In this document: positions 17,278-61,816 of the stretch, piece after piece
How positions within the stretch are numbered: position 1 is the stretch's first letter
How the letters are laid out: every line of letters begins with the position of its first letter
Assembly: GCA_002245135.1 (NCBI GenBank)
Contig: NGBS01001199.1
Span: forward strand, 1 to 64,000
Direction: 5' to 3'
Source: Proteromonas lacertae
Taxonomy: Eukaryota
DNA: 64,000 bases
The notes under the pieces: model-generated
The model's input: the letters and a program-made list of their open reading frames with translations, nothing else
The model's database searches: none
What the model was told of the DNA's origin: nothing
Position numbers and translations under genes: made by a program

Positions 17278-17528
17278 TAAATATATGACTGAAGTGAACC
17301 TAAGAAGGAACCTTCAAAGTAACCTTCAAGGAATCGTAGAACCATCCTAGTCTTTACAATTGGTTTCCACGGTTCTATATATGAACTTTTCTTGGAAGAG
17401 TTCAGCTCGTAGAATACTCTTTGAAGGGATTCACTTAGTAGATCATCCCATAGGGAAGAAGACGTTGTAGGAAGAAGACCCCTTAGGAGGAATCCCGTAT
17501 AAACCATACGTAAATGGGACTATGGCAC
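17261..17528 (+). repeat. Variant terminal repeat of the TIR family
   Basis: Ends TTAGGAGGAATCCCGTA..ACGTAAATGGGACTATGG, as at 46612-46652 and 61223-61265. Confidence 0.85.
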
Positions 17529-17731: not shown

Positions 17732-17952
17732 AGAAACTGCATTTAGAGTAAGAAGCAAGTAGTACTGAAAGCAAACTCCTTATGTTCCATCCATCAACAG
17801 CCTTTGGTAAGAAGAAATGCACGTCCTCTGATCATTACTTTCATAATGCTTGATATCTAGTATAAGTATAATGAAATTAAGCAACATGTTTGAATGTAAT
17901 TGAAAAACACTGTACTGGTATAGAATGGTTATAGTTGTATTTTTAAGAAATT

Positions 17953-40810: not shown

Positions 40811-41010
40811 ATCATTCGCTTTGATATTTGCATAAATACCTGTTATATAAAGTAGAAAATCTATTGGAACTTAATGAGCTATTTCTATTACTAATTTCTC
40901 TATTACTGAATCTGGAATTCCTACTCTCATTTTAACATAGATTCTTTGTTGACTGTTACAAGGATAAGGTAATCACTCAGCTATGGAAACTCAACGATCT
41001 TGATAAGGAG

Positions 41011-41313
41011 GTGGAAGCCCTTACTGACTTTATCATCCAGCACGTCACCGACTTTGAGAACGTCGTAAGCAATCGCATAGGGATGATGACTAGAGCTAAC
41101 TTCAGAACCCTTTGCCGTGACTACTCCAAGATATATGATGAGCTGATATCCATTCTCAAGTACCCAGTCTTACAACTCCAGGACAATCTCTACGTACCAT
41201 TAGACTGGGACTCTTTCAAGAGCCTTAAGAAGTTCCATGATCAAGTTGATGATCTCAAGCAGTCCATAGCTAAGATTCAAACGATTGCTAACTCCTTCTT
41301 AAGCTTATTCTAA
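41011..41313 (+). CDS. Hypothetical protein (ORFan), GC-richer module
   Basis: Intact ORF in a compact intronless cluster. Confidence 0.5.
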   Translation: MEALTDFIIQHVTDFENVVSNRIGMMTRANFRTLCRDYSKIYDELISILKYPVLQLQDNLYVPLDWDSFKSLKKFHDQVDDLKQSIAKIQTIANSFLSLF

Positions 41314-41450
41314 TTTCCTTTACTTTGCTTACTCTCGTTATTGTTTCTGGGAATCCCTAAGCACTAGTTTTATAATAAAAAATACTGTTTAAGTAAAGCT
41401 TCAATGTTCTTGCTCCCACCAGTTGAGAAGGTGCTCCTCGGAGTCGATGA

Positions 41451-42530
41451 TCAGCTGGGAGACGTACTTCCTAGTCTCAATAAGAGCTCCTTGAAGGTGT
41501 AAGATGTAATCGATCCTTGACTCTTGATAGTACCATCTCGTTTCTTTGCTTTACGACTCTTACTATTACTCAAGACACTTGCGTAAGTGATTGCTTTAGT
41601 AACTTCTTCCTGGTCCTTGTGCTTCACTTGAGGAGCTTCTTGCGGTGTCTCCTTCTTGAACATCATCAACCAACAGTAAGTATGGAGTAGACACTCCTCC
41701 ATAATCTGGACGATCTCCTTGAACTTCTCTTGAAGCTTAACGATATCATCTTCATAGTAGTACAGTTCAGTAATGACTTTACTATCTAGTCTATCGCACT
41801 TCTCCTTCATAATATAGAACTGCTCTAGCAAGTGATCGACCTCATTGTCGGAGATGTTAACATCTCTCAAGAGGCTTCTTGTTAACTCTCGATCAGCAAA
41901 GTAGTTCTCCTCCACAGCATTAAAGTAAGTGTTGATCTGGCAGGCTCCGTTCTTGATAGTACTGATGTACTCACAGTGCTTACCAAAGAGATTGTAAGGG
42001 TCCAGGCAGGTTGTCATCCACGAGACTGCATTAACCATCAAGCAATGGAACTTAAGTCTTAGACTAGCAGCTTTCTTATAGACTGGATAGTAGATCTCAG
42101 ACTTACACTTTCCCATCGTGTACTCTGCTGATATCATTCCTTCCATGGAGTATAGGAATAGACATGCCCGGCTCTGGTAAATGCTCTTCTCTACGATCTC
42201 ATGATCCTTCAACTCACAGTCGGTAATGCGATGTAGGCAAGTCCTTAACACTTCCTTAGCTTTGATCACTGACTGATGAACTACCTTGAGTAACATCCTT
42301 ATTGAGCTGTGAACTTCCAAGTCACTCTCAGTGATTCCTTTGTTAGCATTGTCGATCATGATAAAGTGCGTATCCAGAGCTAATTGTTCACACTCCGATA
42401 ACTTCTCTTGAGCTTCCTTGACTAGAAGAGTCCATTCATTACCTTCTTGGATTCCACGATCGGCCTTAAGAATACACACTCTCGGGTAGATTGGTAAGAG
42501 TCTCTTATCTGGTTGATGAATTGAGATCAT
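41451..42530 (-). CDS. Hypothetical helical protein (359 aa)
   Basis: Long intact ORF; no recognised motif. Confidence 0.7.
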   Translation of the reverse strand: MISIHQPDKRLLPIYPRVCILKADRGIQEGNEWTLLVKEAQEKLSECEQLALDTHFIMIDNANKGITESDLEVHSSIRMLLKVVHQSVIKAKEVLRTCLHRITDCELKDHEIVEKSIYQSRACLFLYSMEGMISAEYTMGKCKSEIYYPVYKKAASLRLKFHCLMVNAVSWMTTCLDPYNLFGKHCEYISTIKNGACQINTYFNAVEENYFADRELTRSLLRDVNISDNEVDHLLEQFYIMKEKCDRLDSKVITELYYYEDDIVKLQEKFKEIVQIMEECLLHTYCWLMMFKKETPQEAPQVKHKDQEEVTKAITYASVLSNSKSRKAKKRDGTIKSQGSITSYTFKELLLRLGSTSPS

Positions 42531-42570
42531 GTTTCTGGAGTAGGCAAGAAATTTGATAATAGCTTATCGG

Positions 42571-43155
42571 CTATGAGCTCTTCCTCTGAGGGTGTCGATG
42601 ATGATGATGATGATGACTTCTTCGATCCGATGAATCTACAGCCTGATGCTTTACGTACTTTCTCTTGACCCTGAATGTGAGCTGACGACATCTCTTGAGT
42701 TCTTCTCGTTGATCAGGAGTAAGTCGATGAGCTTCTCGGTTAAAGATCTCCTCGGGACTTAGAGTTCTTTCAGTCATGCTCCCATCCTTGTTAAACTTAA
42801 AGATCATTATCGTGGCGTCCAGATCGATAGTGCAATACTTACACTTCCTATGAGAGTCTTGGTCATTGTCAGAGTCACTTCCATCCATAGAGTTGTATTC
42901 CACTCCTTGATAAATTACCTTACTGTACTTTTGCTTACCACTGATAAACAAGTCCTCGGAGGATTCATTGAGTGCCTCAATGCTTCTTCGGGACTTCTCT
43001 ATCTCCTTTAAATCTTGATCCAACTTCATTTGAATCTTGCTCCTTGTTCTCTCATCCACCTTCTTCACATTCACGTGGACGTGTTTATTCCTTTGCTTAC
43101 TCTCACTTACTTCATCGATGAGTTCCCAGACTTTCTCGGGATAGATGATCATCAA
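42571..43155 (-). CDS. Hypothetical protein (194 aa) with a His-rich tail
   Basis: Intact ORF, co-oriented with its neighbours. Confidence 0.6.
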   Translation of the reverse strand: MMIIYPEKVWELIDEVSESKQRNKHVHVNVKKVDERTRSKIQMKLDQDLKEIEKSRRSIEALNESSEDLFISGKQKYSKVIYQGVEYNSMDGSDSDNDQDSHRKCKYCTIDLDATIMIFKFNKDGSMTERTLSPEEIFNREAHRLTPDQREELKRCRQLTFRVKRKYVKHQAVDSSDRRSHHHHHHRHPQRKSS

Positions 43156-43192
43156 GTCTCCATCCTTCCAATAGCCCGAGGTAAGCGATTGC

Positions 43193-43708
43193 TTATAAAC
43201 CGATCGATAGCTTATAGCGATCAGTGTACTTAGGATTCACTGTTGAAGTCTTGAGCTCTCCGGTCTCAGTAAAGAACTTTGCTTTCAATGAACCTAGTTG
43301 ACTTCTACTATCCTTCATCAAGAGATAGAACGGGTGCTGACGATCGCAACCTGCTGGAACATCCAGGTAGATTCCATCACTCACAGTCTCATTGAACTTC
43401 CTTGAGTTGAATACTTCTACTTCGATCTTGAGGTCCCATAAGAATCGTAAAGCATAACCTTTGTGCAGATCTCGGTACTCGAATATAGATGGGTAGTCGT
43501 ACCTCCGAAGCTTCGTTGAATCTCTGCATCCACAAACGAAAGGAGTGCATCGATAGATTGGAGGAGTAAGGACTGGGTAATGTTGATAGTCGATAGCTAA
43601 GTCCTTGGAGATCTCAGGTAATGTCTTCTCCGAGGATTGCATGGTAGGGACTGTCATCTTTATCGATGAGCTATTGATGGGAATCATGCTCTTCAGGAAT
43701 TCATTCAA
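43193..43708 (-). CDS. Hypothetical protein (171 aa)
   Basis: Intact ORF, co-oriented with its neighbours. Confidence 0.6.
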   Translation of the reverse strand: MNEFLKSMIPINSSSIKMTVPTMQSSEKTLPEISKDLAIDYQHYPVLTPPIYRCTPFVCGCRDSTKLRRYDYPSIFEYRDLHKGYALRFLWDLKIEVEVFNSRKFNETVSDGIYLDVPAGCDRQHPFYLLMKDSRSQLGSLKAKFFTETGELKTSTVNPKYTDRYKLSIGL

Positions 43709-43757
43709 TGAAGGGAGTAGTTCAACTTTTCCTATTGAAATAACCCAAGTGCTTACA

Positions 43758-44111
43758 ATGCCTAAGAAACTTACCCAGGAGAGTGATGAAGAGATCTACG
43801 AGGTTGATGATCCCTTTAACAATGAACCTGACGATGACTCCTTGAAAGCAATTCACTTGAATCTTCCATGGATCCAGATTGCAGGCTTTGCAAGTGATCT
43901 CCAGAACTACTACCATCAAAGGGTAGCTAACAACATTAACTATTCTGAATCAGGTCCTGATAGCTTCATCCTCCTAGATGATCTTCATCGTCTATACGCA
44001 GAAGCCAAGTGGTTAGCAAGAGATCTAAAAGCTGATCTGATGGATGCTGAAGGTACCTTGGAGGAACGCGTTGTTTCAAAGTCCAAGGGTGGTAAGAGAC
44101 GAAGACTCTAA
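43758..44111 (+). CDS. Hypothetical protein with a basic C-terminus (NLS-like KGGKRRRL)
   Basis: ATG at 43758 chosen to avoid overlap with 43193-43708. Confidence 0.5.
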   Translation: MPKKLTQESDEEIYEVDDPFNNEPDDDSLKAIHLNLPWIQIAGFASDLQNYYHQRVANNINYSESGPDSFILLDDLHRLYAEAKWLARDLKADLMDAEGTLEERVVSKSKGGKRRRL

Positions 44112-44265
44112 CTAGCTTAACAACACCCCGAGATAATTCACTTGCTTTATCATCACCTTCTATCTTATTGGGATCAATTTTACATGAGTAAAATCATTTA
44201 TACATGATTGCTTAAGACCGAGAATTCATCTAGTTACAATTTTCCAAACGATCCCGACAAAGTCT

Positions 44266-45042
44266 ATGAGTCCCAGGAAGTCATCACGCAGATCATCATC
44301 ATCAACCAACTCTAGCATTGATAAGTCATCCAAGGAGGGTAAGAAGCTCCGAGTAAAGAAACAAGGAGCTAGTAGTAGAACCATAAGGATGTCATCACCT
44401 ATGATTACGGAGCAAGGTAAAGCAACACTCCGGGAAGAACTCATTAAAGCCATTGTGGATAACTTAAGCTTATTAGCAACCATTGCTCCAGACTACGTTA
44501 ACGATGAACCTTTAAGTACACCACCATCTACTCCTAAGAGACTTACAAGGAAGAACACAGCCCGAGGAAGTAAACAACAACAACAACAACCAAGGAAGAT
44601 GAGCCCAATTAAAGTACCGAGGACATTAGTAGCTACTCGTAAGGCCGGGAATAAACGAGATGTTAGAGTTCATCCAGGATGCGATCGTAAGATACCTTTA
44701 AAGTCCAAGGATGAAGTTAAGCTTATCAAGACTTCTTGTAATGAGACTGGAGGACACGATGCTATCCAGGTAAAGGATCTCGCTTCTTGTAATGGCACGG
44801 TGATACTAGTTAGTCTAGATGGACAGATGATTATGGAGATGGATCCAGACCACAACCAGATAAGACTTCATTTGGATCCTGACTTTAACCTAGCAAAGGA
44901 ATCCATGGAGGTATGGGACAATGCATTCTACGTTCCTTATAATGATACTAAGAACTTCTTCCGAGTCTGTGATGATGCTTTAACCTTGTTGAACCTCCCG
45001 AGAATGGCATCTACCTTCAAGAAGATGGTGAACCACAAGTAG
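44266..45042 (+). CDS. Hypothetical protein with a basic S/R/K-rich N-terminus
   Basis: Intact 258-aa ORF. Confidence 0.65.
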   Translation: MSPRKSSRRSSSSTNSSIDKSSKEGKKLRVKKQGASSRTIRMSSPMITEQGKATLREELIKAIVDNLSLLATIAPDYVNDEPLSTPPSTPKRLTRKNTARGSKQQQQQPRKMSPIKVPRTLVATRKAGNKRDVRVHPGCDRKIPLKSKDEVKLIKTSCNETGGHDAIQVKDLASCNGTVILVSLDGQMIMEMDPDHNQIRLHLDPDFNLAKESMEVWDNAFYVPYNDTKNFFRVCDDALTLLNLPRMASTFKKMVNHK

Positions 45043-45369
45043 TTACCTTATAAGCTTAGTTCATGTACTTACGACAGCTGTCTTGTCTTGGGATGATAAA
45101 CCTTTTCCTTTACCTTGATGAACTTTAATATCAGCTGATGAAGACCTCGGTAATGCTCTTATTGTTGATTGATAAGAACCCTCTTAGCAAAACAATACCG
45201 TAAAGACAAGGGATAAGTAATTACTTTAAGGAACATCAAGAGCTGTAAGCTTATTGATAACATCACCTGTCTTGTATAGTAGCTCCTCCAACTGCTTATC
45301 ATCAGGAGTATAAACAACGACCAACTTGTTGATGATCTTCAAGTAGCTCTGATTCAACGATCGGATACT

Positions 45370-46296
45370 TTACTTCTGTTCATCATCGTGATACTTGAGT
45401 TCTTTCATCAGCTTTAGGCACTTTACAAGATGACCTTGAATGTATACTGACTCCTTCTTCTTAAGAGTTGATGATATTCCCATGGAGTTGCAATAACTTT
45501 TCTTGGACTCCTTAGTTAAGCAGGTGAGTTGGATGTGATCATTAATGGAACCTAGGTACTTCTTAAGGCAGTAAGGACAGAGACCACAGGAAATGTTCTT
45601 ATCGGTGACTCTAGCAGCAGTAATCACGGGATTATCAACATCGATCACGTCCATTGGATTAGCAATCACGGTATAATGATATTGAACTTGATCATCCTCC
45701 TCGGCTTCTAGGTAAAGTAAGTAAACAAAACGATCAGGAGAAGTCATCGGTAAAGTACAGCTACTGCGTCTGGCTAATCGTAAATGCGATCCCTTCAATT
45801 GATAGATGTGAACACCCACGTTATTGTTCTCTTCAAAGGAGTCGATGAGTCTGGAAGATGATATTGGATTTGCTATAGGGTGTTGGTAGTTAATGATGTA
45901 CTTGCTTAAGTACTTGGAGTACATCTCGGGATTCTCAATGGCTGCGTTCTTACTGAGTTGATGATGATGAAGAGCTGCGATTGCGGAGTAAGCAAAGCTG
46001 AACATAGCAATACGTACATTTATAATACTGCTAGGATCAATCACTTCCTTGGGCACCTCCAGCAGTGCTTCGATGAAATAAACTTTGTTGACCCGTGACT
46101 TCTTAGCTGGATGATCCTCAGTTGCCTTATGAAGTTCCTTATGTGATCTCTTGACCTTACCTTCGGAGGATGATTCTACCAGTGGTGTGTTGTTGCTTAC
46201 CTGGGATAGTTGAGAAGCTAAATTGAAGTCCCTGGAGGAGTCTTGTTCTGTGACTACTTTATCATTCAATGGAGATGTTGCTTGGGTTGGATCCAT
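45370..46296 (-). CDS. Stand-alone vOTU-like plus Zn-finger domain homologous to the pPolB N-terminal region
   Basis: IINV..MFSFAYSAIAALH..FEENNNVGVHIY..VYLLY..HYTVI..CPYC..HIQLTC aligns by eye to polB VINL..MCFLFSVAAGLH..FEQLNHITINIF..VNLLI..HYMVI..CQYC..HQKENC. Confidence 0.75.
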   Translation of the reverse strand: MDPTQATSPLNDKVVTEQDSSRDFNLASQLSQVSNNTPLVESSSEGKVKRSHKELHKATEDHPAKKSRVNKVYFIEALLEVPKEVIDPSSIINVRIAMFSFAYSAIAALHHHQLSKNAAIENPEMYSKYLSKYIINYQHPIANPISSSRLIDSFEENNNVGVHIYQLKGSHLRLARRSSCTLPMTSPDRFVYLLYLEAEEDDQVQYHYTVIANPMDVIDVDNPVITAARVTDKNISCGLCPYCLKKYLGSINDHIQLTCLTKESKKSYCNSMGISSTLKKKESVYIQGHLVKCLKLMKELKYHDDEQK

Positions 46297-46347
46297 TTAT
46301 ACTTCACTAGGTAAATGATTTCAACTATTCAAGGCTATCGAAGTTAC

Positions 46348-46716
46348 CAATTGTAAACTCCCGGTTCCACGATTGGTTTCCACGGTTCAATTAAAAGCCC
46401 TTACAAGGTCACCAGCGTAGCAAGGAGAGTCAAGAGCATGATTAGAATCATCACCTCGAGGTAACCAACACTTCTAGATAGCTTCCAGGAGCACCCGTAG
46501 GAGATCGTCTCATAGATAGGTATAGGTAGGTATAGGAAGGTATTGATAGGTATAGAAATAGCTTAGAGGAGTCCCCGTAGGAAGTAGACTCTGTTGAGAA
46601 GTAGACCCTGTTAGGAGGAATCCCGTAGGAACCTTACGTAAATGGGACTATGGTACATTATGCCAGAGTTCTAACGAGTTTTCTAGGAGTCCGTCCCCTT
46701 CTAGATTCAGAGTTGA
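46348..46716 (+). repeat. Near-identical direct copy of the right terminal repeat 60960-61328, truncated inside the hairpin
   Basis: Constant offset of 14612. Confidence 0.95.
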
Positions 46717-48176
46717 ATACTTTAAGCAGCCAGCTGTTTACTTCAACTACGAGAAGATCCGAGACAAGGGAAAGGTACTTAAAGTATTCGGAGGAGTTGC
46801 TAGTGGGGCAACTCCTCTGAAGGAGCTTCATCACTCTATCCGACTAGTCCAGGATGATCTCATCGGTAAGCCCATATCAACAAGAGCAATCGTGGACTTA
46901 GGAAACCTCATCGGTAGATGCATAGTCAGTGGTAATGTCCGAAGATCCGCAGAGATAGCCTTTGGAGAACATCACGATGAAGAGTTCCTTAACCTCAAGG
47001 ACTATGATCTCAACCCAGACAGAAGCTCCTTTGGATGGGCATCCAACAACAGTGTCTTTGCAATCAAAGGAATGGACTATAGCAATATAACTGAACGCAT
47101 ACGGAAGAATGGAGAGCCTGGTATCTGCTGGTTGAAGAACATGCAAGAGTATGGACGGCTAGGCGATCCAAAGAATAAGAAGGATCGAAGAGTTCTCGGT
47201 GGTAATCCTTGCCTAGAGCAATCGCTGGAGTCTTATGAGATGTGTTGTCTGGTAGAGACGTTTCCTTATCGTCATCATAATCTAGGAGAGTTCTTAAGGA
47301 CATTGAAGTTTGCTTACCTATATGCCAAGACTGTGACTCTGGGGATGACTCACTGGCCAGAGACCAACAGAGTGATGTTAAGGAATAGAAGGATCGGATG
47401 CAGTATCAGTGGATAGCGCAGTTCATTGATAAGTACGGAGTTGATATTCTCAAGACTTGGATGGAAGAAGGCTATTCAACTATCCAACACTGGGATAGGA
47501 TCTACTCCGAGTGGTTCTGCATTCCACGATCAATCAAGACAACATCGGTAAAGCCAAGTGGTACAGTCAGTCTACTTGCTGGAGCAACTCCAGGGATTCA
47601 CTTCCTCAGAGCAACTACTACGTTAGAAGGATTAGGATAGATAAGAATAGTCCATTAATTAGAGTCTTGAAGCATGCAAAGTATCCGATTGAAGATGACT
47701 TCTATTGCCCAGAGACAACCTCGGTGATCTCCTTCCCAGTCGAAGTAAAAGGAGTTAGAACTATCAAGGAGGTACCGATGTATGAGCAGCTGATGTTGCT
47801 AGCCTTCGTTCAGAAGTACTGGGCTGACAATCAAGTGTCCTGTACGATTACCTTTGATCCGAAACTAGAAGGGCCCCATATTCAACACGCACTAGACTAC
47901 TTCCAATATCAACTCAAGGGAGTATTATTCTTACCTTCAATTGCCACTGACCAGATGAAAACAACCTACCCACAGATGCCTTATGAAGAGATCTCCAAGG
48001 AGGAGTATTACCGACTCCTACAACAAGTATCAGAACCTGACTTTATCAGAAGCTCCTCAAGGGATTATAAGATCGATCTAAGTCCCGAGGAAGTTCAAGG
48101 AAATGAACTAGATGGAGACTACAATCAACCATTCCCGATTGAAGTAAGCTATTGTGATGGTGATCATTGCCTTTAA
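46717..48176 (+). pseudogene. nrdJ: Class II (adenosylcobalamin-dependent) monomeric ribonucleoside-triphosphate reductase, 5'-truncated, two 1-nt frameshifts
   Basis: FGGVASG, VSGNVRRSAE, GEPG, NPCLEQ, RNRRIG, TSVKPSGTVSLLAG, WADNQVS, YPQMPYEEI, C-terminal YCDGDHC. Confidence 0.93.
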
Positions 48177-48353
48177 GTAAATTACCTAAGTGATCTTAAA
48201 GGTTTTATGTAGGGATGGACAATAATCAAAGTAGATATCATCGGATAGGAGATGATAAGGGACGTGATAATAAGCATCTCCGATAGATCCTAGACGATGA
48301 TTGCAGTAGCCCGTAAACAACTCAAGGTTATTAACAATAAGTGATTAAGGAAC

Positions 48354-49433
48354 TTAGAAGTATCTGGATAAGGTCGGTATTTGTTGGGCCTGTTGCTGAT
48401 AGACTCCTCCGAATGATGGGACGTAAGCAGCATAAGGATTGTAGTTAGAGTAGTAGTTCATTGATGCTGGAGGAGTAGGAAAGGATGATTTTGTAGATCT
48501 CTTACCTTTAACAGTCTTAGTAGTTTTCAAAGGAGCCTGAATAGGAACCTGCATGGGAACTTGTAAAGGAATTGATGGGGAAGTACTTGCTGGTGTTGCT
48601 AGTCCAGAGGTTGTTGGATTGCCAGACAAGGAACTTACTATCGGTGAATTGAAGTAAGTGTATGAGGGTGTAGAACTGGATGATTGATTCTCTTGCTTTA
48701 CCTTAAAGCTATCGGTAGTTACTTGAATATCATCTTTGGGAATAGATGTTGGGGTTGGTAATGAAGTAGGAACTGATGTAGCTGACACTGATGAATCAGA
48801 TACAGAAGCTAGTTTAAGATCGTCAAGGATCTTATGAATGTAAGTGTCCTGACTCTTAACTTCATCGTTGAGGAGGTTGCTAGAGTGCTTTATAGTTTCC
48901 AAGATCTTGTCCACGATCTCTGATGATAGACGTACTTCCTCGGGAGTGAGCTTATCAGCTTTTGCTTTAGTCTCTTGAAGTAGTTGATAGTAGGAACGAA
49001 GATGTTTTCGTAAGTCAGCGTATATGGCTACATAGTCAATGATCTTGTCCTTGCTGCGGATGGACTTCAAGGTCTTGGTTAAGTTCTTGATAGTGACATC
49101 TTTGGATGACTGTGCCGAGGAAGTTGTCTTGCCTCTGAGGAGCTTCTTCTTAAGTGTAGTGCTAGCAACAGTAGGAGATGCCTTCGATGATTTAGATATT
49201 ACTGGTGCCTTGAGTGCTAAGTGCTTATTAAGCTTACGCTTCTTGGAGTCATTGGAATTGGTGGATGACTTCATAGCCTTACTACGCTTAGCAATTGAAC
49301 GTGAATTCTTTACCTTTACGGGAGTGATGATAAGTACCTTGGACTTCTTATGAGTAGAAGTAGCCATAGGCTCACACTGTTGTAATTCAAGGCTAGAAGA
49401 AGTACGGGTAGATAATGCTTGTTGAGTATTCAT
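48354..49433 (-). CDS. Hypothetical K/S/T-rich protein (359 aa) with a Y/Q-rich tail
   Basis: Long intact ORF, low complexity. Confidence 0.65.
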   Translation of the reverse strand: MNTQQALSTRTSSSLELQQCEPMATSTHKKSKVLIITPVKVKNSRSIAKRSKAMKSSTNSNDSKKRKLNKHLALKAPVISKSSKASPTVASTTLKKKLLRGKTTSSAQSSKDVTIKNLTKTLKSIRSKDKIIDYVAIYADLRKHLRSYYQLLQETKAKADKLTPEEVRLSSEIVDKILETIKHSSNLLNDEVKSQDTYIHKILDDLKLASVSDSSVSATSVPTSLPTPTSIPKDDIQVTTDSFKVKQENQSSSSTPSYTYFNSPIVSSLSGNPTTSGLATPASTSPSIPLQVPMQVPIQAPLKTTKTVKGKRSTKSSFPTPPASMNYYSNYNPYAAYVPSFGGVYQQQAQQIPTLSRYF

Positions 49434-49964
49434 AAGGCAAAGTCTCTCTAGGAGGATCAGAAAAAGTTAAATACAGAGATGCCTGTTAAGATAAGTTCAT
49501 CCCAAGAACAACGCCTGGTAAAAGTTAATCAAAGAGTATTTATCGATAGAAGAAGTTACTTAAGGTATAGAGTTCATAGCAACCCAAAGAGCTATCAGCA
49601 TCATCATTAGAAGGATGGTAATCAAGATACTTCGGATCAATCTACAACAACTACTATGCTCAATAGCTGGGTGATCTTCAAAAAACATCTGGACATTTAA
49701 GATAAGGAGGATTCAAAGGACGCTTACCAGCACTTCGTCATGACAGAAGAACTCACGGAAGCTATAAGTCCAGGAACGACAACTTCTTTCAGCTATAAGC
49801 ACTAAGCGATCAAAGTCAAAATCCATTGCTCGGTAAGATCCAAGGAAATGAACGATTAAGTAAATTGGTAACTCCCGCCGGAAGAAGTTCTGAAGTGTTA
49901 ACAATTCCGAAGTGAGTTATGAATCGACATTCCCGGCATTGATCAATTTCCTTGCCTTTCAATC

Positions 49965-50837
49965 ATGGTCATCTCAACTACTACTAGATCGATTGCTCCT
50001 TACCGTCCTCCTTTACTTATCGGTGAATCTACTCCCGAGAATGATCAACCTCAAATAGCCTCCATCAAAGCAATGCCTTATGAACACACTCACATGGAGT
50101 ATAGCAACAGCCCGCAATTCGTCAATGGATTACCAGGACTCACCAGTCAAAAGAATCGATCTTCCTATAAAACAGCCTTCAATCAACTCTTAGGCATTGC
50201 TCATCCTTACTACTACAACCAGGGGATCTCCATCGCTATCCTCAAGACAATCATTGTACTTAACTTTGATGATACCTTATTCCCAACCTCCTATATGATG
50301 AAGAACTACTGAGAAGACTTCGATCAGAGATGTTCCCTTAACAACCTCGGGGTTGAAGATCATAGCATCATGCAGCAACTGGACTATACCATCGGTCAGC
50401 TCCTTATGCATTGTATGAGCCTATCTTCAAATCTACCGATAGTGATCCTTACCAATGCTACTCGAGATCATGTCTTTAACATCACTGAGAGATTTTACCC
50501 AGCCTATGTATATCAACTACTGCTCGATGAATATAACTTCTTCGTCCTCTCGGCAAAGGAACGATATGGACAATTGAGTTACAATAACAAGATGTGGAAG
50601 GTGGAAGCACTTCAATGGATCATGAACTACTACTTCGATGGTCCGATAACAAACTCCTGGGAAGATGACTTTGCCGTCAATGTTCTATCAGTTCCAATCC
50701 TTAAGAAGGCGATTCAACTAGAAGTTGGCCAGGCTGCTGATGGTAAGAAGCTCATTGGTACCATAGAGAAGTTGAACCTCAACCTTACTTCCTTCTGTAG
50801 AGATCTCCGATCCTTCCACGTCCACTTAAAGAAGTAA
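49965..50837 (+). pseudogene. HAD-superfamily-like protein with an in-frame TGA (50310-50312)
   Basis: TIIVLNFDDTLFPTSY motif-I-like (first Asp is Asn), VILTNA, LSAKERY..WK; the frame continues into ORF 50370. Confidence 0.65.
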
Positions 50838-51169
50838 TTACTTAGACTTTGTTTATTGTTTGTTGTCTTGGGGATTGCTTAAATAACACTAAGCGTCCCC
50901 GTAAATGATCTCCTCAAGACAACAAGGCAATGAACAATTGTAAAGACACTTCAAAGGAACCTCTAAGAACAACACCGAGATAGAATAGAACAAGAGATTA
51001 TCAGGTTTAAGTAATGCTAGTTAGTCCTCACCTGAGGATTCAACATCCGTAGCTTCAGTAAGGTCAAGATCACTGAGAAGATATTCAGTAAGTACTTAAC
51101 CTTCAAGGTTGGCTGGAGGAAGTCCATGTACTGCTTCATCTTCTTACTAGCAGTAAGCTGCTCGATGTC

Positions 51170-51595
51170 TTAGCCAAGGAGATACTTCAAGGTTCTTAAT
51201 GCACCAGAGTAGAGGATAAGTGGCATGTAATGGCCCAGTGGGATGTATCCATAGTCTTCTTCCTTGCTATTGTTGTATCTGATAAGCTTACAGCCTTTCT
51301 TCATCCTGGTCATGATATGTCTTGGACCTTTAAGTAAAGTCGTAGGAAGCAGATTGAGCTTCATAAGGTGACAATGGAACTTGGCAGAAAGGTTCTTAAA
51401 GTATACACAGTCATCATCAGGAGTAGGATCGGTATACCTGCTCATCACTCCGAGATTCCTTATCTGTTGCTTCATGGAGATGAGGTACATCTTGATGAAC
51501 TCATCGGAAAGATCCTGGTTGTCATCCTTCTGGTTAAGGATCACGTACTTAGCGTCTTCATTCAAGGTGATCTCCTCCGACATGTTTATAATCAA
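51170..51595 (-). CDS. Hypothetical protein (141 aa), duplicate of 15777-16202
   Basis: Identical translation. Confidence 0.55.
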   Translation of the reverse strand: MIINMSEEITLNEDAKYVILNQKDDNQDLSDEFIKMYLISMKQQIRNLGVMSRYTDPTPDDDCVYFKNLSAKFHCHLMKLNLLPTTLLKGPRHIMTRMKKGCKLIRYNNSKEEDYGYIPLGHYMPLILYSGALRTLKYLLG

Positions 51596-51619
51596 GGTAA
51601 GTTATCACAGACACTAGCT

Positions 51620-51904
51620 TTATCGGGTATTGTCAGCTATGAAGTCTCTTACCATGTCTATGATCTCAGCATTGAAAGGATCATCATCATCGTCTTCATC
51701 CTTGGAGTTAGTGATTGTAAGTGAAGATTTATGAGGTTTAGGAGGGAAAGGAGGAGGAACATCATCATCAACAGCAACAGCCATCTCAGCCTTCAACTTC
51801 TTATACTCCGACTTAAGCTTAATTCTGAACACCTTAGTGTCTTTCTCATCGCTAGAAGATTCCTCTAAGGCATTGATAGGTCTGGTTCTCTTCATGATAT
51901 TCAC
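51620..51904 (-). CDS. Hypothetical protein (94 aa), duplicate of 16227-16511
   Basis: Near-identical translation. Confidence 0.55.
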   Translation of the reverse strand: MNIMKRTRPINALEESSSDEKDTKVFRIKLKSEYKKLKAEMAVAVDDDVPPPFPPKPHKSSLTITNSKDEDDDDDPFNAEIIDMVRDFIADNTR

Positions 51905-52359
51905 AGATCAGAAAAGACTCAATGGAGATTTTAACAATTGTAAAGTCCCTGTTCCACGATTCTATTAAAAGCCCTTACAAGGTCACTAGCGTAGCAAGGA
52001 GACTCTAGATCGTGATTAGATTCATTGTCTTTAGATGGCCAACACTTGTAGATAGCTTCCAAGAGTCCCTGTAGGAGATAATCCTGTAAAAGATCATCCC
52101 GTAGGAAATCGTCCCGTAGGGAAGAAGACCTACAATTGATTAATTAATCGATGTTATTACTTCATGGCATATTTGATGAAAATCATCCGCCATTTAATGC
52201 TGAGAAGGATAAATCCTATGAAATTTTGTGTACTTGCTACACATTATATGATCTGCTTAAATTAACAATAATATTTAATAAACTGAAAAAATTACATGTC
52301 TTAATAAAGATTTAAATAAGATTTTCTGATAAAAAAATCGATTGATCACCAAAACAACC

Positions 52360-54058: not shown

Positions 54059-54847
54059 TTAGCCTAAAAGAAGGTTTTATATAATTTTTGTAGGGGATTT
54101 TCATTTGATTTTATGTTGGCCAAAATTAATACATATAATATAGTAGCCATTTAAAATATTAAATCAAAAGAATTTCAACTAGTTAGCGTTTAAAATAATT
54201 CGAAGAATATATAGTATATAAATGGGACTCTGGCATATTGTACCATAGTCCCATTTACGTAAGGTTCCTACGGGATTCCTCCTAACAGGGTCTACTTCTC
54301 AACAGAGTCTACTTCCCTACGGGAACTCCTCTAAGCTATTTCTATATCTATCTATGAGACGATCTCCTACGGGTACTCCTGGAAGCTATCTAGAAGTGTT
54401 GGTTACCACGAGGTGATGGTAATGAAGAAGCAGTGATCTCTTTCGGAGTATGGGTAAGAACGTCTCAGAGGAAGCTTCCTTACCAAGGACGATGTTGCGG
54501 AGCAATATCGGACTTGGATAGGAAGGTTCCGTCGTAGACGTTCTTGTCCATGCCCGGAAGAAGAACTGCTTTCTTCATTACCAGGATCATTGAGAAGGTA
54601 CTTTCATTTGATCATCATCCAGGGTTGTTGAATCTCTTGGAGTTGTTGCTGCCCAACAAAGCAAGGTAAACTATTTGCACCATGGTTGGGCAGCTCCGAA
54701 GGTGGTCACTGACTATAGTTATCCTCTTGCTTAGACTTCCTCTATCTATCTATTACTTTCTCATAATAACAGTCTAGGTATCGGCTTCTCCTGTAATGTT
54801 TTTGATCAATCCCAAGACAGAACCTTATCAGGTAAAGCTTACTATCA

Positions 54848-57322
54848 TTAGCTGAATAAGGAAGTACAAATGAATGTTGTAGTAGCTGTAAATGAAACAG
54901 AACCATTGTGATTGTTGGTGTAGTTGAAGTTATCATAGCCATTATAAACGAAGTAGTGCCAGTATGCTGTTGAGTCTGTACGTTTTATCTTATAAGTCCA
55001 GTAAGTGTTTCTCTTATCGAAATGGAAGACCTTTCGGAACTCAACGAATTCTTTCTTATCAGGGTCGGTGAATGCAATGCCGGCATAGGCATTAACATCC
55101 ACTGATCTTCCGCTAGTCGTTGTCATGGTAAGCTCAATTCTATTTGGATAAGCAGTTAAAGTTCCCTTCATAGGCCCACCATAGCCATACTGTAAAACAT
55201 CCATATCAATATTGATCGCCCTAGCGATTACCAGATCTTGACTCTCAAGGACATACTTCCACATTGAAGTCAAGGTCTCATTTATCTGATTAGCTACCGT
55301 GGTAATCTCCGATGATCCATCTCCTTGAGATGCCAGGCTTTCTACTGATGTCTTCAACTCCGTTAACTTCTTCTGGACGTCCTGAACATTGCTATCGACT
55401 GAGTTGATCTTACTTAATTGAGCTGCACTGGTAAAGTTGTTTACTTGAGTCACAGCCAGGTTGTTTAGGTTGTTGACTTTGCCTTGGACTTCAATGACTC
55501 TTGTCTGGCAGTCTCCTATCTTTGAATGTACTTCATTGACCTTGGTTAATTGAGCTGGTGAACAGAAGCTATTGACATTCCCGGTATTGAATCCATCGAT
55601 CTTGGTTCTGATAGCAGCTGCATTGTTGATAGCTGTATCGATCAGTCCTTTACGAGTATTGTTAAAGAAGCCATCCAAGTTCCTTCGTAGGTTGTCTTCT
55701 TCAGTCCTTCTAGCCACGCCGCAGGTTGCATTCACATCATTGATACTTAGAGAATCCACCTTGATCTTGATTGCATCGGTGTTGGCCTTAGTTGTATCAA
55801 TGAAGTTACCACGACCTTCAGTACAGAACTGGTTAATACTCTCCTTGTTGAGGTCATGGACACGTTCATAACACTTATCTATCTTCTCCGATCGATCCGA
55901 AGTACAGAAGTGCTTCACAGCAGTGTTGGTCTCATCGATAGCAGCACTTCTCGGGATAGTACAAAACTCCTTGATCGCGTTGTCAGCATCGTCGATCTCC
56001 TTAGTTCTCTTATCGGTAATGAATCCTTTGATCAGTTCCTCAATGCTCTTGACAATGGTAAGTCTCTCCAAGGAGCAGTAGTTGTTAATGTCTTCGATGG
56101 CTATGCCGGTGATCAGCTCATGGACTTTATCAATCTTCTCCTTCTGTGAGCTACTACAATACTGGTTGATATCATCGATATCTATCTTACTTACAATATC
56201 CTTGGTCTTGTCAATAGCGGTAGCTCTCTCCTCAGTGCAGAAGGTATTCGTCTTGTCAGCTTCTCCATTCAACCCGGCGATCTCTTCCTCCATAGCATTC
56301 ATCTGGTTCTTAAAGTCCTTGTTGTAACCATTGGCAATCTCAATCTCTTGTAAGACCTCCTTGAACTTAATCATGTTGTTGTTAATCACAGTATTGATTG
56401 CCTTGTACTCCTCGTAGTTGTTCTTCATCTTGATCAACTCCTCAGAATCTACTTTGATCTGCTTCTCTAAGTCAGTGAGCTTCGTAAGGCTCTTATCATC
56501 CACCGTAGTGATGTACTTGATCATATCATAGACGTTAACATCCCCGATGTTGAGACTCTCACATAATGACTTCAACAAGGTACTGAGACGATCCAATTTC
56601 TCATCCTCTGATCCCTTCAATTGATCGATTGAAGTATTGGTGGATTCAAGGGCATTGCTTACATCCTCCATGCTCTTATACAACTCTGGTAATTGCTTCT
56701 CCGTGTACTGCTTAAGTTCATTGCTGCAAGTAGCAATATTGCTCAAGGTTGTAATAGTCGTATCTCCGAAGTCTTTAGGGATCTTGTTGTTAAGTAAAGT
56801 ACCTAGGTTCTTAACTTCCTGGAGCTTCTGATCGATACCTTCAATCTTATCAGTCTCATCTAGCACTTCCTTTAAGGTCGATTGAATAGCTTTATGATCT
56901 GGTTGTAAGGTACCTTGAAGGTACTCATGGAGTTGTTGATGATCAGTCTCTAGCTTAGCCAACTTCGTAGATGACTCCTCCGAGTGATCATCCAACTTTC
57001 TCTTGATAGCTGTTGTGGATGAGGTTACTTCTTCTTGTTGCTTCTGATTGATACTGACGGGTGTTCCTCGGAGGACTTCTTGGATAGTGCTTACCAATGG
57101 AGGATTGATCTTATCATAGTCTATCACGGCCTTGAGTTCACCAGAACCCAAGGCCTTTTGAATCACTTCCTGGGAGTCTTGAAACAACATGTCCTTATCA
57201 TACTTAGCAACAACCTTCCCATCTATCTTTTGCTTCACATCGTAAGTAGTCTTGTCGATAGTATTAAGTAACCTTAACATCTCCTCATCGTTCTCCCGTA
57301 AGTTGTTCCCGGTGTTGAACAT
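54848..57322 (-). CDS. Fibre/spike-like coiled-coil protein (824 aa) with Cys-containing repeats and a beta-rich C-terminus
   Basis: Heptad-rich body, about 9 repeats of [IV]NxFC[ST]xxxxxxID, aromatic beta-rich last about 120 aa. The CDS is secure; the function is inferred. Confidence 0.7.
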   Translation of the reverse strand: MFNTGNNLRENDEEMLRLLNTIDKTTYDVKQKIDGKVVAKYDKDMLFQDSQEVIQKALGSGELKAVIDYDKINPPLVSTIQEVLRGTPVSINQKQQEEVTSSTTAIKRKLDDHSEESSTKLAKLETDHQQLHEYLQGTLQPDHKAIQSTLKEVLDETDKIEGIDQKLQEVKNLGTLLNNKIPKDFGDTTITTLSNIATCSNELKQYTEKQLPELYKSMEDVSNALESTNTSIDQLKGSEDEKLDRLSTLLKSLCESLNIGDVNVYDMIKYITTVDDKSLTKLTDLEKQIKVDSEELIKMKNNYEEYKAINTVINNNMIKFKEVLQEIEIANGYNKDFKNQMNAMEEEIAGLNGEADKTNTFCTEERATAIDKTKDIVSKIDIDDINQYCSSSQKEKIDKVHELITGIAIEDINNYCSLERLTIVKSIEELIKGFITDKRTKEIDDADNAIKEFCTIPRSAAIDETNTAVKHFCTSDRSEKIDKCYERVHDLNKESINQFCTEGRGNFIDTTKANTDAIKIKVDSLSINDVNATCGVARRTEEDNLRRNLDGFFNNTRKGLIDTAINNAAAIRTKIDGFNTGNVNSFCSPAQLTKVNEVHSKIGDCQTRVIEVQGKVNNLNNLAVTQVNNFTSAAQLSKINSVDSNVQDVQKKLTELKTSVESLASQGDGSSEITTVANQINETLTSMWKYVLESQDLVIARAINIDMDVLQYGYGGPMKGTLTAYPNRIELTMTTTSGRSVDVNAYAGIAFTDPDKKEFVEFRKVFHFDKRNTYWTYKIKRTDSTAYWHYFVYNGYDNFNYTNNHNGSVSFTATTTFICTSLFS

Positions 57323-58537
57323 TGCCTAGGTAATGATTCCAAATCAGAACTTTACTTATAGATCCAGGAGCTACTTTACTAATATGACTTCTCAGGTATC
57401 TGTTATATCATAACATGCCCTGGCCTTCAACAGCTTTGCCTACCTCCCGAGAAGTACCTTGTTAACTCTATCCACACGATGAACTTCAACTCCTTACGAT
57501 TACTAGCTGATGGATGTAGATGACTTTATCGGTCTTTGTAATGAGTTGCGTGATCTCTATGCTGTGAACTTCATAGTCTCGATCATCATCTACCATCTTA
57601 ACTTACAATGCTTCTATTCGGATAAGACTTATACGATAGTCAGAAGCCTCCTTTGTAGTTCAACTACTCTCCGTAGACTTCATTTGCACCTTTGACTTCC
57701 AAGGATCTACTAATCGTCTCTCTATTCCAGATGCTCCTTTACCTTCTTGGACTTCTCGGACGTGATAGACATTGCCTATGAAGTACTTTGTCTTCACTCT
57801 TGGTTCTAGCAGTCTATGATCCACTGCTATGGTAAGTACCTTGAGACTGATTGCTGAAGTTAGAGTTGATCTCATCCTTAACATCTCTTGAAGAACTACT
57901 TGTGATCTTTACCGATACATATCTCTTGAACTGATGGTAACCCTTCAAGTGACAATTCCTTCTAGTTCTAGTTCATCGAAGTTGTTGATCCTCAGTAATG
58001 TACTAGCCTTCAGTCTGATCACTACTAGTCTCGGTATTGTTGAAGTCAGTGTCTTTACCTATCTACTATTAATCACCTTACGATCGATAGCTTATAGACT
58101 CTTGGACATCAATGCCAGTGTTGCTACTTGAGGAGTATACGATATCTCTGCTCTACTTACTTGCTTACTAGTAATGATTCCTAGCATCACAAGTAAGGAC
58201 TACTTAGGTAAAGGATTATCCATCACACTTCCTATAGTCTGCAATTGTAACTCTTTATGTACCTACAACTACTTCATGATCTTCAGAGTCATTGATCCAA
58301 GGATGTTATCTTGGGGGTTGTTGATGTCCTTACTATCATTGACTTATCCGAGACTCCTTTAGTTTATTTAATTGATTACTTACCATGTCCTTGAGTTGCT
58401 CATCTCCGTAAGGCTCCTTGAATTGATTATTTCTATTGTCCTCGGTCATACCCAAGGTAACATTTTACTAAGTACCAACAATGTTAATCACGTTCCTTAT
58501 CAGGAGATGCGTTTACTACTACTACTACTTGTGGAAG

Positions 58538-59326
58538 TTATGATGACTTTGCCTGGTAAGGAGTTGCTTCAGAAGCTAGCTTCAGATGCTTCGCTGGAGG
58601 ATCACTTGAAGCAGCTCGCGATGGTACTGAGGGTGTTGTTATTGGTCTCTTCTTCGGAGGATTACTAAGCTGTTTTTGTCTCCTCATTGATTCTATCCTG
58701 AGTCGGAGATGATCTTCATATTGTCTTAAGCGATGATACAGACTCAAGAGACAGCACATCGGAAGTGACTTTACCTTTAGATCTACGTGAAAGTTGATGT
58801 GTCCATCTTTGATAGATAAAACTATCTTGGCCTGGCAAGACTTCTCTTTGAGGTGAGCAGCATCACATAGAAATGAAATAATCTTATCGAACATCCCATC
58901 ATGGTCGATTAGATCATTGTTGTCCTTGATTGTCTTAAGAATCTCATGTATACTGTGTTGCATAAGCTGATTAATTATATCCCTTGTTTTATCACTGGAG
59001 TTGATGGAGATTCCTGGTTGTTGATTCTTAGTAGGTTTCCCAGATCTACATCTTGGACAACATCGATAGTAGTCTCCATTGGGCTTTAACATCATCGATG
59101 AAGCGAAGTGCATATGGCATCTACTGCAGGACATAGTCTTGGCTATGAGTTCACTGTTCTCTTCCAAGGCTTTACGTTCCTCATGGCATCGGGCTATTGT
59201 CTTCTGCTTTGCCTTTCGCAAGAGAGCTCTACAAGAACTACAACAGCTGTATGCTCTTCCATCAGCTTCAGATTGGAACTCCTTCTTACATCGACTACAT
59301 TTGACGATGGATTGCATGGTTACCAA
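58538..59326 (-). CDS. Protein with two CxxC..CxxCR zinc-ribbon repeats
   Basis: KCSRCKKEF..YSCCSSCR and SCSRCHMHF..YRCCPRCR. Confidence 0.7.
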   Translation of the reverse strand: MVTMQSIVKCSRCKKEFQSEADGRAYSCCSSCRALLRKAKQKTIARCHEERKALEENSELIAKTMSCSRCHMHFASSMMLKPNGDYYRCCPRCRSGKPTKNQQPGISINSSDKTRDIINQLMQHSIHEILKTIKDNNDLIDHDGMFDKIISFLCDAAHLKEKSCQAKIVLSIKDGHINFHVDLKVKSLPMCCLLSLYHRLRQYEDHLRLRIESMRRQKQLSNPPKKRPITTPSVPSRAASSDPPAKHLKLASEATPYQAKSS

Positions 59327-59874
59327 TTAAGTATAAAAATAACTAGAAATATCTTAATGCCTTGAGTGACTGTAATAATAGACTGGTTACTACATATTGA
59401 TCTCATGGTTATTAGGTACTTGTTTATTAGCTTTACTTCTATGAGTACTTATTCATATCTATGAATGATGCTTAGTAGATAGTCTGTAACTTGGTTACTA
59501 CATACTGATCACTTAGATAAGCTATTGGAATTTAGCAACTAAGTGCAGGATCTATTTTCTATGTCCCTATTTTTAAACCTTATTTACGATGTCCTTATGT
59601 CCGGTCAGTTCAATTTTTCTTGGCCTTATCAGAGTTGTGAATGCACCTCCAACTCCTAGGCTTCTTGTAGTAGGGGTCACTCAATGCTTCCTAAGCTCCT
59701 GCTGTTGATCTCATTCCAGTGTTAGGGTATCTAGTACTGTACTTTATAGTGAACTGTTGATTACAGATTCATCTCTATTCAATTTTTTCTTTGCAGTTTG
59801 GATCTCTAATGTGGTTGATGATGGTTTTGATAGATACTAGAAGGCCATGTAGGCTGTGGTATGGATTTTATGCA

Positions 59875-59948
59875 GTATCAGCGGTGGGGTTCGAACCCGG
59901 AGGGGATGGGATGTTGGTACCTGGTCTGCCCACTAGGGCATCTTGAAC
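59875..59948 (-). ncRNA. tRNA-derived Pol III A/B-box element (Leu-tRNA-like ends, no intact cloverleaf)
   Basis: Minus strand reads GATGCCCTAGTGG (A-box-like) ... GGGTTCGAACCCCACCGCTGA (B box and T arm). Confidence 0.5.
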
Positions 59949-60189
59949 TTGCTTATGGATTGCTGATCCTAGTATATGTATTGTTCAGCTACAGTATTTA
60001 GTGAATAGCTTCAGAATGATTCCTATTCAATCTCCATTGGACAGATGATGGGGAATTGACCTTAAGAAATTGCTCATTAGCTTACCTCCAGTAACATCTC
60101 TAACAAGTGCTCAGGTAAGTTCCTACTTATCCTAGGCTTCCCAATCACGGTATCCACGTTTCTACGATTGCTTAGATGATGATGCTGTC

Positions 60190-60960
60190 CTCGGGAATGA
60201 ACTTTACCTTCAGGAATAAATAAACTAAACTGGTATGTAAGGAGCTTCCTAGTAGATGACTTACAAGGTCAATGGAAGATAGCTACAGAACCCTCCCGAG
60301 ATTGTTTATCACGATCTTCAAGGCCTTTGAGAAATTCAGAACTAGCTGGAGCCTCTTGAATTCAAGTCTTAGAAGGACAATGAAACTTACCTAGGCAATG
60401 ATCCTGTGGATGTTCCTTGACTTTGTAATGAAGTCTCTCTTGATGGAAGTTCCATGGCTTTGACGGGAGGTTCCTCCTTGAGTTACAACTCAAGGAGGAA
60501 CATCCCTTCCTTGCTAGATGATAGTTGAATGTTACCTAGTTGAATTATAAGGCCATTGTAACTTACCTCTAGGAAGCTCCCGAGAATGCTTACAATAATC
60601 TTCAAGGCCTTGAGAAAATCCAGTACTAACCAGAACCTCCAGTTGTAAAGTCACTGATTAATAGAAGAACCATCAAGACCTTCCCAGATACGTCCAGCCG
60701 TGCATGACTGCGTCAGGGAATCTCCCATCGTGGGAGATTCCCTTCCTTGCCAACACGGCTGTTCTTCTCGGGAAGATCTTGGATGAACTTACCTAGGAGA
60801 GTTATAAGGATGATAAAACATACCTTCAGAAGCCTTCCGAGATTGCTAATCATTATCTTCAAGGGCCTTGAGAAATCCACAACTAGCTAGAACCTCCCGA
60901 GTTACCATTTGGTAACTTGTTAACAATTGTTAACTTGTTAACAATTGGTAACAAGTTAAC
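60190..60960. repeat. Degenerate tandem array (three units roughly 260-285 bp apart) with embedded palindromes
   Basis: Core CCGAGA.TG...ATCTTCAAGGCCTTGAGAAA at about 60295, 60579 and 60835; perfect hairpins at 60470-60501 and 60715-60743; GTTAAC/CAATTG cluster at 60901-60966. Confidence 0.8.
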
Positions 60961-61250
60961 AATTGTAAACTCCCGGTTCCACGATTGGTTTCCACGGTTC
61001 AATTAAAAGCCCTTACAAGGTCACCAGCGTAGCAAGGAGAGTCAAGAGCATGATTAGAATCATCACCTCGAGGTAACCAACACTTCTAGATAGCTTCCAG
61101 GAGTACCTGTAGGAGATCGTCTCATAGATAGGTATAGGTAGGTATAGGAAGGTATTGATAGGTATAGAAATAGCTTAGAGGAGTCCCCGTAGGAAGTAGA
61201 CTCTGTTGAGAAGTAGACCCTGTTAGGAGGAATCCCGTAGGAACCTTACG

Positions 61251-61453
61251 TAAATGGGACTATGGTACATTATGCCAGAGTTCTAACGAGTTTTCTAGGA
61301 GTCCGTCCCCTTCTAGATTCAGAGTTGACCTTTACGGGAGCTTCATCGATGCAATCGATGAAGCTCCCGTAAAAGTCAACTCTGAATCTAGAAAGGGACG
61401 GACCCCTAGAAAACTCGTTAGGACTCTGGCATAATGTGCCAGAGTCCCATTTA
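61251..61453. repeat. 203-nt terminal hairpin (100-bp arms, 6 mismatches, GCA loop)
   Basis: Arms 61251-61350 and 61354-61453 compared base by base. Confidence 0.95.
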
Positions 61454-61816
61454 TATACTATATAGAAGAAGGATTTGGATTTTAGGCTCGAGCTTGACTT
61501 AATTTATTTTGTTAAATAGAAAGAGATATGTAATCTTATATTTTCAAAATTATATATTATGATGTTTTTATTTATGATATATTAGAAAAATCAAATAAAA
61601 AACAAAAGAAAGTTAAAAAAAATGAATCGAAAGGGTTTTTTGAAACTACTATTTTGCTTTATGAAATGAACGCATAGAATTACTGAGGAGTTTTGGTGAG
61701 TGAAAAGCACAACGAAAGTCACAAAACACGAAAGTGACGTGTTTTTCCTAACCCAGAAAAATACACTAAATATGTATGATATTATTAATAACATAAAATA
61801 ACTATGAAAATATATA

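Follow-up and report, generated by a model that had tools for sequence, protein, structure and literature searches.

The endogenous virophages of Halocafeteria seosinensis, and likewise its polinton-like viruses (PLVs), are reported to carry palindromes within their terminal inverted repeats (TIRs), beside target-site duplications (TSDs); in the same preprint, fragmented virophages and PLVs that keep TIRs and TSDs are described, and hairpin-primed replication is proposed (10.64898/2026.07.28.741278). The rve integrase is known to make 6-bp duplications (PMC12220804), and transpovirons are described as episomes with a helicase (PMC7031253). Here we analysed a stretch of 64,000 nucleotides of Proteromonas lacertae (contig NGBS01001199.1, hereafter the window), in which an initial annotation had marked a hairpin-ended element at 54208-61464 as the best candidate for an undescribed system. 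Hairpin ends beside a TSD have already been described in protist virophages and PLVs (10.64898/2026.07.28.741278). The element is real and looks recent, and it is likely a helper-dependent insertion; its family, related to Polintons and having unequal hairpin ends, would be an unsampled one.

The element and its flanks were delimited as follows.
54208..61464, 7,257 nt: focal element, flanked by exact GAAGAA on both sides.
54202..54207, plus strand: left TSD, GAAGAA.
61465..61470, plus strand: right TSD, GAAGAA.
The chance of such matching flanks, computed from flank composition, is about 6e-4, and the terminal 21-mer occurs twice in the window, once at each end (0 expected from 100 shuffles). 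The description of a complete 7.3-kb element with a perfect 6-bp TSD was thus confirmed. As an exact 6-bp duplication is the usual mark of the rve integrase, insertion is considered to be of the integrase type. The preferred boundary starts with TA; if the ends are instead set 5 nt further in, at AG...CT, the flanks agree at 5/6 positions, which is less parsimonious. Polinton/Maverick termini read 5'-AG...CT-3', and with the preferred boundary the focal terminus would differ from them in having TA rather than AG. The GC content of the element is 41%, against 20-28% in host-like blocks, and on the left it adjoins the 3' portion of a Tc1-like transposase gene that is broken. Searches with the end patterns of the element gave 0 matches in metagenome and viral contigs.

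Two intact long open reading frames (ORFs), both on the minus strand, make up 45% of the element.
54848..57322, minus strand: orphan ORF, 824 aa, with coiled coil, Cys repeats and beta-rich C-terminal domain.
58538..59317, minus strand: orphan ORF, 259 aa, with two predicted Cys4 zinc fingers.
Neither of them matches a protein-primed family B polymerase (pPolB). No Pfam match to rve was found in the ORFs or read-through frames of the element, while the same scan detected rve at 36458-37597. As to a double jelly-roll capsid, the 824-aa protein was found to be mostly helical with heptads. No Walker A motif of a packaging ATPase was seen in element pieces of 60 aa or more, and for a helicase neither a family match nor a Walker A motif was found in the element. 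No replication or integration gene was thus recognised within the element itself; in a sibling block, the polymerase is represented by a homolog of its N-terminal region alone.

In addition to the focal element, the window contains much DNA of the same kind. DNA of 39-42% GC and of one signature fills about 21.7 kb of the window (non-redundant, about 19 kb), of which about 14 kb lies beyond the focal element and had been overlooked. Four broken ends lead into three gene sets other than the focal one.
~40950..46716: block A, broken inside a hairpin arm; left border approximate.
45370..46296, minus strand: 308-aa gene of block A, stand-alone homolog of the Polinton protein-primed polymerase N-terminal region.
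46717..52132: block B, with reductase, further orphans and a variant end that has 80% identity to the focal right end.
46718-48176: class II ribonucleotide reductase in block B, 5'-truncated and frameshifted.
14771..16720: block B2, a 99.4% copy of 50164-52113.
16721..17860: block C, with a third end variant at ~17340-17545 and a 97-aa ORF.
13569..13755: block D, a copy (94%) of the C end's inner part.
The tetranucleotide signature of these blocks correlates with that of the focal element at r 0.75 for A, 0.70 for B, 0.65 for B2 and 0.46 for C, against 0.14-0.33 for host blocks and the low-GC mobile elements of the window. Likewise, the GC content at third codon positions is 0.51 and 0.40 in the two focal genes and 0.46 in A/B, against 0.16-0.24 in host and Maverick genes. 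The end of block A is 99.2% identical to the focal right end over 376 nt (3 substitutions in 371 nt), and that of block C shows 83-85% identity over about 85 nt. Inside these ends a gene begins at a distance of 49 nt in A, 35 nt in B and 111 nt in C, each pointing inward. The genes of block A (308, 258, 164, 193 and 359 aa) are all unlike the focal cargo.

The link to Polintons comes from the 308-aa protein. By pairwise BLAST its similarity to the Maverick polymerase of the window was weak (E 0.11). With a two-sequence profile made of this polymerase and P0121, which is DNA_pol_B_2 positive, the 308-aa protein ranked 1st of 420 six-frame pieces at 17.5 bits, against 9.8 bits for the best of 1000 shuffles. 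As judged by motif reading, this polymerase region may be the one for which PMC11071308 describes a vOTU domain. Viral contigs yielded no relatives of the 308-, 155- and 259-aa proteins, nor any of the N-terminal part of the Maverick polymerase. The reductase of block B best matches unnamed proteins (72% identical) and Blastocystis proteins (68-69% identical); in a tree of 32 rows it stands on a long branch, its placement not being fixed. Across the family DNA (about 19 kb), family scans and tblastn recognised no polymerase core, integrase, protease, packaging ATPase or capsid; the tblastn search is insensitive, as it also missed the 308-aa homolog, and divergent core genes may be present in the siblings. 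The autonomous partner that the initial annotation proposed to look for was thus not recovered, related ends being present in the window but no core genes being recognised in this DNA. A TTRCCT motif lies upstream of 7/13 family genes against a 5% background; it was chosen by eye from the same data and is taken as a lead only.

Several further observations concern these blocks. The gene at 49965-50837 has one internal stop, which is also present in the B2 copy; its motifs resemble those of HAD-like hydrolases from giant viruses and protists, and no match was found in Pfam, PDB or viral contigs. The junctions at 46716/46717 and 16720/16721 connect one family fragment to another, not to host DNA, with the breaks inside end sequences; they could be recombination at ends or assembly joins. 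The use of block C as proof of a short-hairpin ancestor was dropped, because block C breaks too early.

The two ends of the focal element were then found to be unequal.
54208..54418, plus strand: left end, short TIR form, with an 11-nt terminus, a 39-nt hairpin and then 191 nt matching the right end.
60953..61464, minus strand: right end, long form, ~510 nt; 60953-61328 is 99.2% identical to 46341-46716.
54219..54257: left subterminal imperfect hairpin, 39 nt, folding z -4.3.
61251..61453: right subterminal palindrome, 203 nt, with arms of 100 nt, 94/100 paired.
54417..54583: imperfect hairpin, 167 nt, lying after the left end and before the 824-aa gene's 3' end.
60899..60972: palindrome of 18-nt units, 74 nt, at the inner border of the right end.
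The outermost 29 nt of both ends match at 28/29 positions, and both subterminal palindromes begin 11 nt inside their terminus. The left end is without about 164 nt of the right palindrome, a stretch bounded by two 9-nt direct repeats. Over 191 nt, the two ends differ by 5 substitutions, one 1-nt indel and one 30-nt indel, a block that the left end lacks, and the match ends at 54418 on the left and 61061 on the right. The TIRs thus extend over about 210 nt on the left, aligned imperfectly to about 400 nt on the right. Of the hairpin-ended TIRs originally proposed, the terminal identity stands, but the TIRs are not one continuous match; the long palindrome belongs to the right end, but the left has its 39-nt hairpin only. 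A fold-back assembly artefact was rejected for the right palindrome, because its arms differ at 6 positions, its outer arm matches the left terminus and its inner arm recurs in block A.

In the 167-nt hairpin, 65/84 columns are paired, and RNA folding gives -108.6 kcal/mol for the plus strand against -83.7 kcal/mol for the minus strand. Its mismatches comprise 7 transitions and 8 transversions, compared with 25 and 7 in a reference pooled from three pairs of repeat copies within the window (p 0.046). When three internal hairpins were pooled, the mismatch spectrum also differed from that of repeat-copy decay (p 0.002). As the spectrum differs from that of decaying repeat copies, the sequence suggests that this hairpin structure is maintained, as opposed to decaying.

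These arrangements bear on the possibility that the element is a true segment of an integrating DNA virus with a multipartite genome, or else a satellite resembling transpovirons. A long promoter-bearing right end, a short left end and few genes would then be the normal design, with another segment or a helper virus providing for replication, packaging and integration. Behind right-type ends lie four different sequences (focal, A, B and C), the end of A is nearly that of the focal element, and the genes of A, B and C start close to their ends and point inward. Both focal genes run from the right end toward the left end and stop before the 167-nt hairpin with its non-decay mismatch spectrum. 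The lack of recognised core genes in the family DNA fits as well; size, TIR length, tandem repeat and zinc-finger gene resemble those of transpovirons (PMC7031253), and termini common to segments are known in bidnaviruses (PMC6521256). Against a segment, block A and the focal right arm may be two arms of one parent, and B and C may represent different subtypes; a single complete unit and a single left end were seen; and a large virus, too, would be expected to have variable, orphan-rich terminal regions that lack core genes. Against a satellite, the helicase, a core gene of transpovirons, is lacking. We consider the segment or satellite possible, if on the weaker side. A whole multipartite virus or satellite family of a protist, with separately inserted units of 5-10 kb that have a common hairpin-and-promoter end, their own gene sets (fibre and zinc finger; polymerase N-terminal domain; ribonucleotide reductase) and one common integrase, is given slightly less weight still.

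The age of the end differences was next compared with that of the insertion. One sequence state is common to the left end and the distant ends of B and C but absent in block A and the right end. The left and right ends diverge at 5/191 positions, against 3/371 between A and the right end. If the end differences had arisen after insertion, the probability that both ORFs stay open would be 0.23 for substitutions alone and about 0 when the single 1-nt indel is counted, both being rough values from few events. Because of the state common to B and C, the higher left-right divergence and the two open ORFs, the sequences indicate that the unequal ends probably predate the insertion, and the inserted unit probably looked much as it does now. 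As the left-right differences look older than the insertion, mobilisation in trans is likelier.

The same data weigh on an in-place origin, by which a full-length virus would have integrated here with its own integrase and later lost its interior by one or more deletions. The region is rich in broken and rearranged pieces (A, B, B2, C, D and hydin fragments), a TSD and ends survive internal deletions, and the left end can be derived from the right end by removing 164 nt between the 9-nt direct repeats that flank the palindrome, as in a classic slippage deletion. Opposed to this are the states that the left end has in common with the distant B and C ends, its greater divergence from the right end than that of A, and the intactness of both focal ORFs, unlike block B with 3 breaks in 2,332 nt. 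Deletion in place is therefore held to be unlikely. The case that had been named as refuting the annotated element, a deletion derivative of an ordinary Maverick, is weakened on both counts, as deletion is disfavoured and the Maverick of the window differs in GC, codon use and terminus.

Taken together, we tentatively lean, at somewhat short of even confidence, to a non-autonomous, end-intact, helper-dependent (defective or recombinant) derivative of a larger undescribed Polinton-related virus, with integrase supplied in trans. Dependence on a helper is likely because no replication or insertion gene was recognised in the element, and neighbouring fragments carry related ends on different genes. 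Two further features were counted for this derivative: the left end stops about 100 nt short of an inner block kept in the right, A and B ends, which resembles a deletion junction, and the class II ribonucleotide reductase of block B is an accessory gene expected of a larger replicon. An rve-type integrase of an autonomous relative, supplied in trans, would act on the terminal 11 nt as attachment site, and helper enzymes may use the subterminal palindromes to prime or direct replication, a role already proposed for virophages and PLVs whose TIRs are palindromic (10.64898/2026.07.28.741278). A promoter driving genes inward would lie in the right end's inner part, and the unit itself may have been assembled before insertion via deletion or end exchange among family members.

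Several points weigh against such a derivative. The helper was not found, the family scans and the insensitive tblastn search giving 0 matches to polymerase, integrase or protease in the about 19 kb, and no internal deletion junction was located. The Polinton link comes from a single domain, and the score of that domain from a profile of two sequences. The junction on the left, at a structured hairpin after a complete gene, fits a natural end as well as a deletion. The contrast between left-right and A-right divergence is borderline (Fisher p 0.049, using 2/371 with one edge mismatch dropped). From the proposal of a segment or satellite mobilised in trans, an integrase-type insertion of a unit that has no integrase or polymerase of its own is supported by the TSD, the intact ends and the lack of core genes. 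The segment or satellite gains from the related ends seen on other gene sets, three in number, but the same data would be explained by the defective or recombinant genome of some larger virus. One window cannot separate the segment from the defective derivative.

With respect to the cargo, residues 95-350 of the 824-aa protein form a heptad coiled coil, mostly helical, with a hydrophobic periodicity of 3.5 residues. Residues 350-645 comprise about eight 27-aa Cys-punctuated repeats, and in leave-one-out scoring 7/7 tested repeats scored above all 300 shuffles. The part from about 700 to 824 is predicted as a beta-rich domain by low-confidence single-sequence models (pLDDT 37 and 39). From its architecture, a fibre or spike role may be assigned to this protein; the label of fibre-like gene accordingly survives as a description of layout, with no homolog behind it. 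The protein gave 0 matches among 7,992 scored candidates and 0 in 1.84 billion representatives, no homolog in PDB sequences or phage genomes, no usable Atlas match, and in NCBIfam only coiled-coil matches, all sub-threshold. Fold searches on the poor models (best E 0.05, best Z 4.4) were uninformative. The gene annotated as Zn-ribbon proved to be the 259-aa ORF, with four CxxC pairs at 7, 26, 64 and 87; no family was found for it in Pfam/NCBIfam-type scans. In an exact-match protein collection, 0/10 window proteins were present.

The remaining parts of the element are non-coding or carry repeats.
57330..58537: stretch without long ORF, 1.2 kb.
59887..59898: RNA polymerase III B-box match, palindromic, 0.04 expected.
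60253..60903, plus strand: three 110-nt repeats, at 60253-60362, 60537-60646 and 60794-60903.
The decayed ORFs once assigned here were not borne out, as 57330-58540 has 16-51 stops per 403 codons across the six frames, a patchy coding score and no Pfam match over the cut-off in 12 read-through frames. Nor was the tRNA-like element: a lone B box is present, ARAGORN found 0 tRNA genes in the element, 7 Rfam matches included none to a tRNA and all fell far under the gathering score, and the folding z of the putative tRNA region was +0.5 to +0.6. Such a tRNA would not have been new in any case, because tRNAs occur in PLVs (PMC12220804). The annotated repeat array was verified. The second and third 110-nt repeats are 68-75% identical to the first, short hairpins lie between the repeats (60462-60509 and 60715-60743), and the element also contains tandem arrays of 18 nt (x3.6) and 10 nt (x4.5). 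A conserved RNA fold of the 110-nt repeats is weak, with double changes in 2/28 and 2/16 pairs. Within 60275-60892, each 110-nt repeat encodes on the plus strand a similar 20-residue peptide, with small genes or promoter repeats as candidates, and the repeats open with a motif resembling one upstream of several family genes.

TIRs and a short TSD around unrelated cargo are the anatomy of non-autonomous cut-and-paste transposons. A transposon of an integrase-like family with captured virus-like genes would have just this anatomy, and both an rve integrase gene and a Tc1-like transposase are present in the window. The cargo, the ends and the siblings share, however, one compositional signature distinct from that of the transposases of the window; the genes in A and B are long, intron-free and densely packed; and cut-and-paste transposition needs no long subterminal palindromes. 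This origin is regarded as quite improbable.

Other mobile and host-like DNA was observed in the window. One end of a low-GC (32%) Maverick occupies 1-5783, with an apparent terminus near 5783, and its protein-primed polymerase ORF (1038-4379, minus strand) is stop-interrupted and 44% identical to P0121 over residues 330-720. At 34908-37990 (24-33% GC) there is an rve integrase ORF of 379 aa (36458-37597, Pfam 1.5e-13), next to a 295-aa ORF that by eye resembles a Ulp1-type protease and has no Pfam match. The 9-kb low-GC rve block and the Maverick at 1-5783 are unlikely partners of the element, because they have no DNA in common with it and their composition differs too. The Tc1-like transposase gene (52132-54060) is interrupted at 53107-53753 by a 647-nt element with 274-nt inverted arms (97%), and related ends lie at 9866-10167 and 33973-34304. 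Copies of a 485-nt non-coding element with short inverted ends, 97.5% identical, are located at 6255-6850 and 13756-14262, one of them abutting block D. A region of about 15 kb (18000-33100, 18-24% GC) is dense in long glycosyltransferase and acyltransferase ORFs, including Galactosyl_T and two Acyl_transf_3-like genes (one tested). Pieces of hydin/CFAP65-type genes at 10760-13200 and 38300-40900 are apparently out of order on the minus strand, and those at 10760-13200 carry stops and frameshifts. With such gene pieces in AT-rich DNA, the host is probably a protist bearing flagella or cilia.

As surveys of integrated protist viruses rely on capsid genes, end-intact units without capsid are overlooked. 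The family found here would be an unsampled one: nearly all of its genes are orphans, its hairpin ends are unequal and it has a ribonucleotide reductase. Should the units be segments, they would represent an integrating DNA virus that is segmented and related to Polintons; should they be defective genomes, they would provide a natural test of the hairpin-primed replication proposed for such viruses.

Among described systems, the elements of H. seosinensis resemble the focal element in having a palindrome in the TIR next to the TSD, TIRs of several hundred bp and a GC contrast with the host. As far as the available text of that preprint goes, they differ in their mean size of about 24 kb and in having genes for capsid, ATPase, replication and integrase, and the palindrome shown there in a figure has 52 nt, whereas here the element is 7.3 kb with a 203-nt palindrome at one end, no core genes and siblings with ribonucleotide reductase (10.64898/2026.07.28.741278). 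Polintons/Mavericks and rve-integrase PLVs are alike in the 6-bp TSD, the long TIRs and, through the sibling block, the pPolB N-terminal homolog; unlike Polintons/Mavericks, the element has no pPolB or integrase, lies below the 14-40 kb range given in the available text of the sources and has unequal ends (PMC12220804, PMC11071308). Transpovirons of Mimiviridae are similar in their size of about 7 kb, TIRs of 380-520 nt, intergenic tandem repeat, zinc-finger gene (here predicted from CxxC pairs) and helper dependence (here likely) (PMC7031253); the corresponding values here are 7,257 nt, about 510 nt for the right end (the left being shorter) and repeats at 60253-60972. Unlike transpovirons as they are described in the available text, the element is integrated with a TSD in a eukaryote genome and has hairpin ends, and no sequence similarity was detected (PMC7031253). 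The VD1 and VD2 of bidnaviruses are units of 6-6.5 kb whose inverted terminal repeats have a common terminal sequence of 53 nt, and one of these segments carries no more than the gene of a large minor structural protein and a small non-structural gene (PMC6521256). A common terminus on units with different genes is likewise seen here (A 99.2% over 376 nt, B 80%, C 83-85%). Bidnaviruses, in the available account, are insect ssDNA viruses that do not integrate, and here no polymerase-bearing partner segment was found (PMC6521256). In a title- and abstract-level search of the literature, a segmented or satellite integrating system of this kind was not found described. On core genes, the element stands outside the Polintons, PLVs and transpovirons, while it works like a non-autonomous relative.

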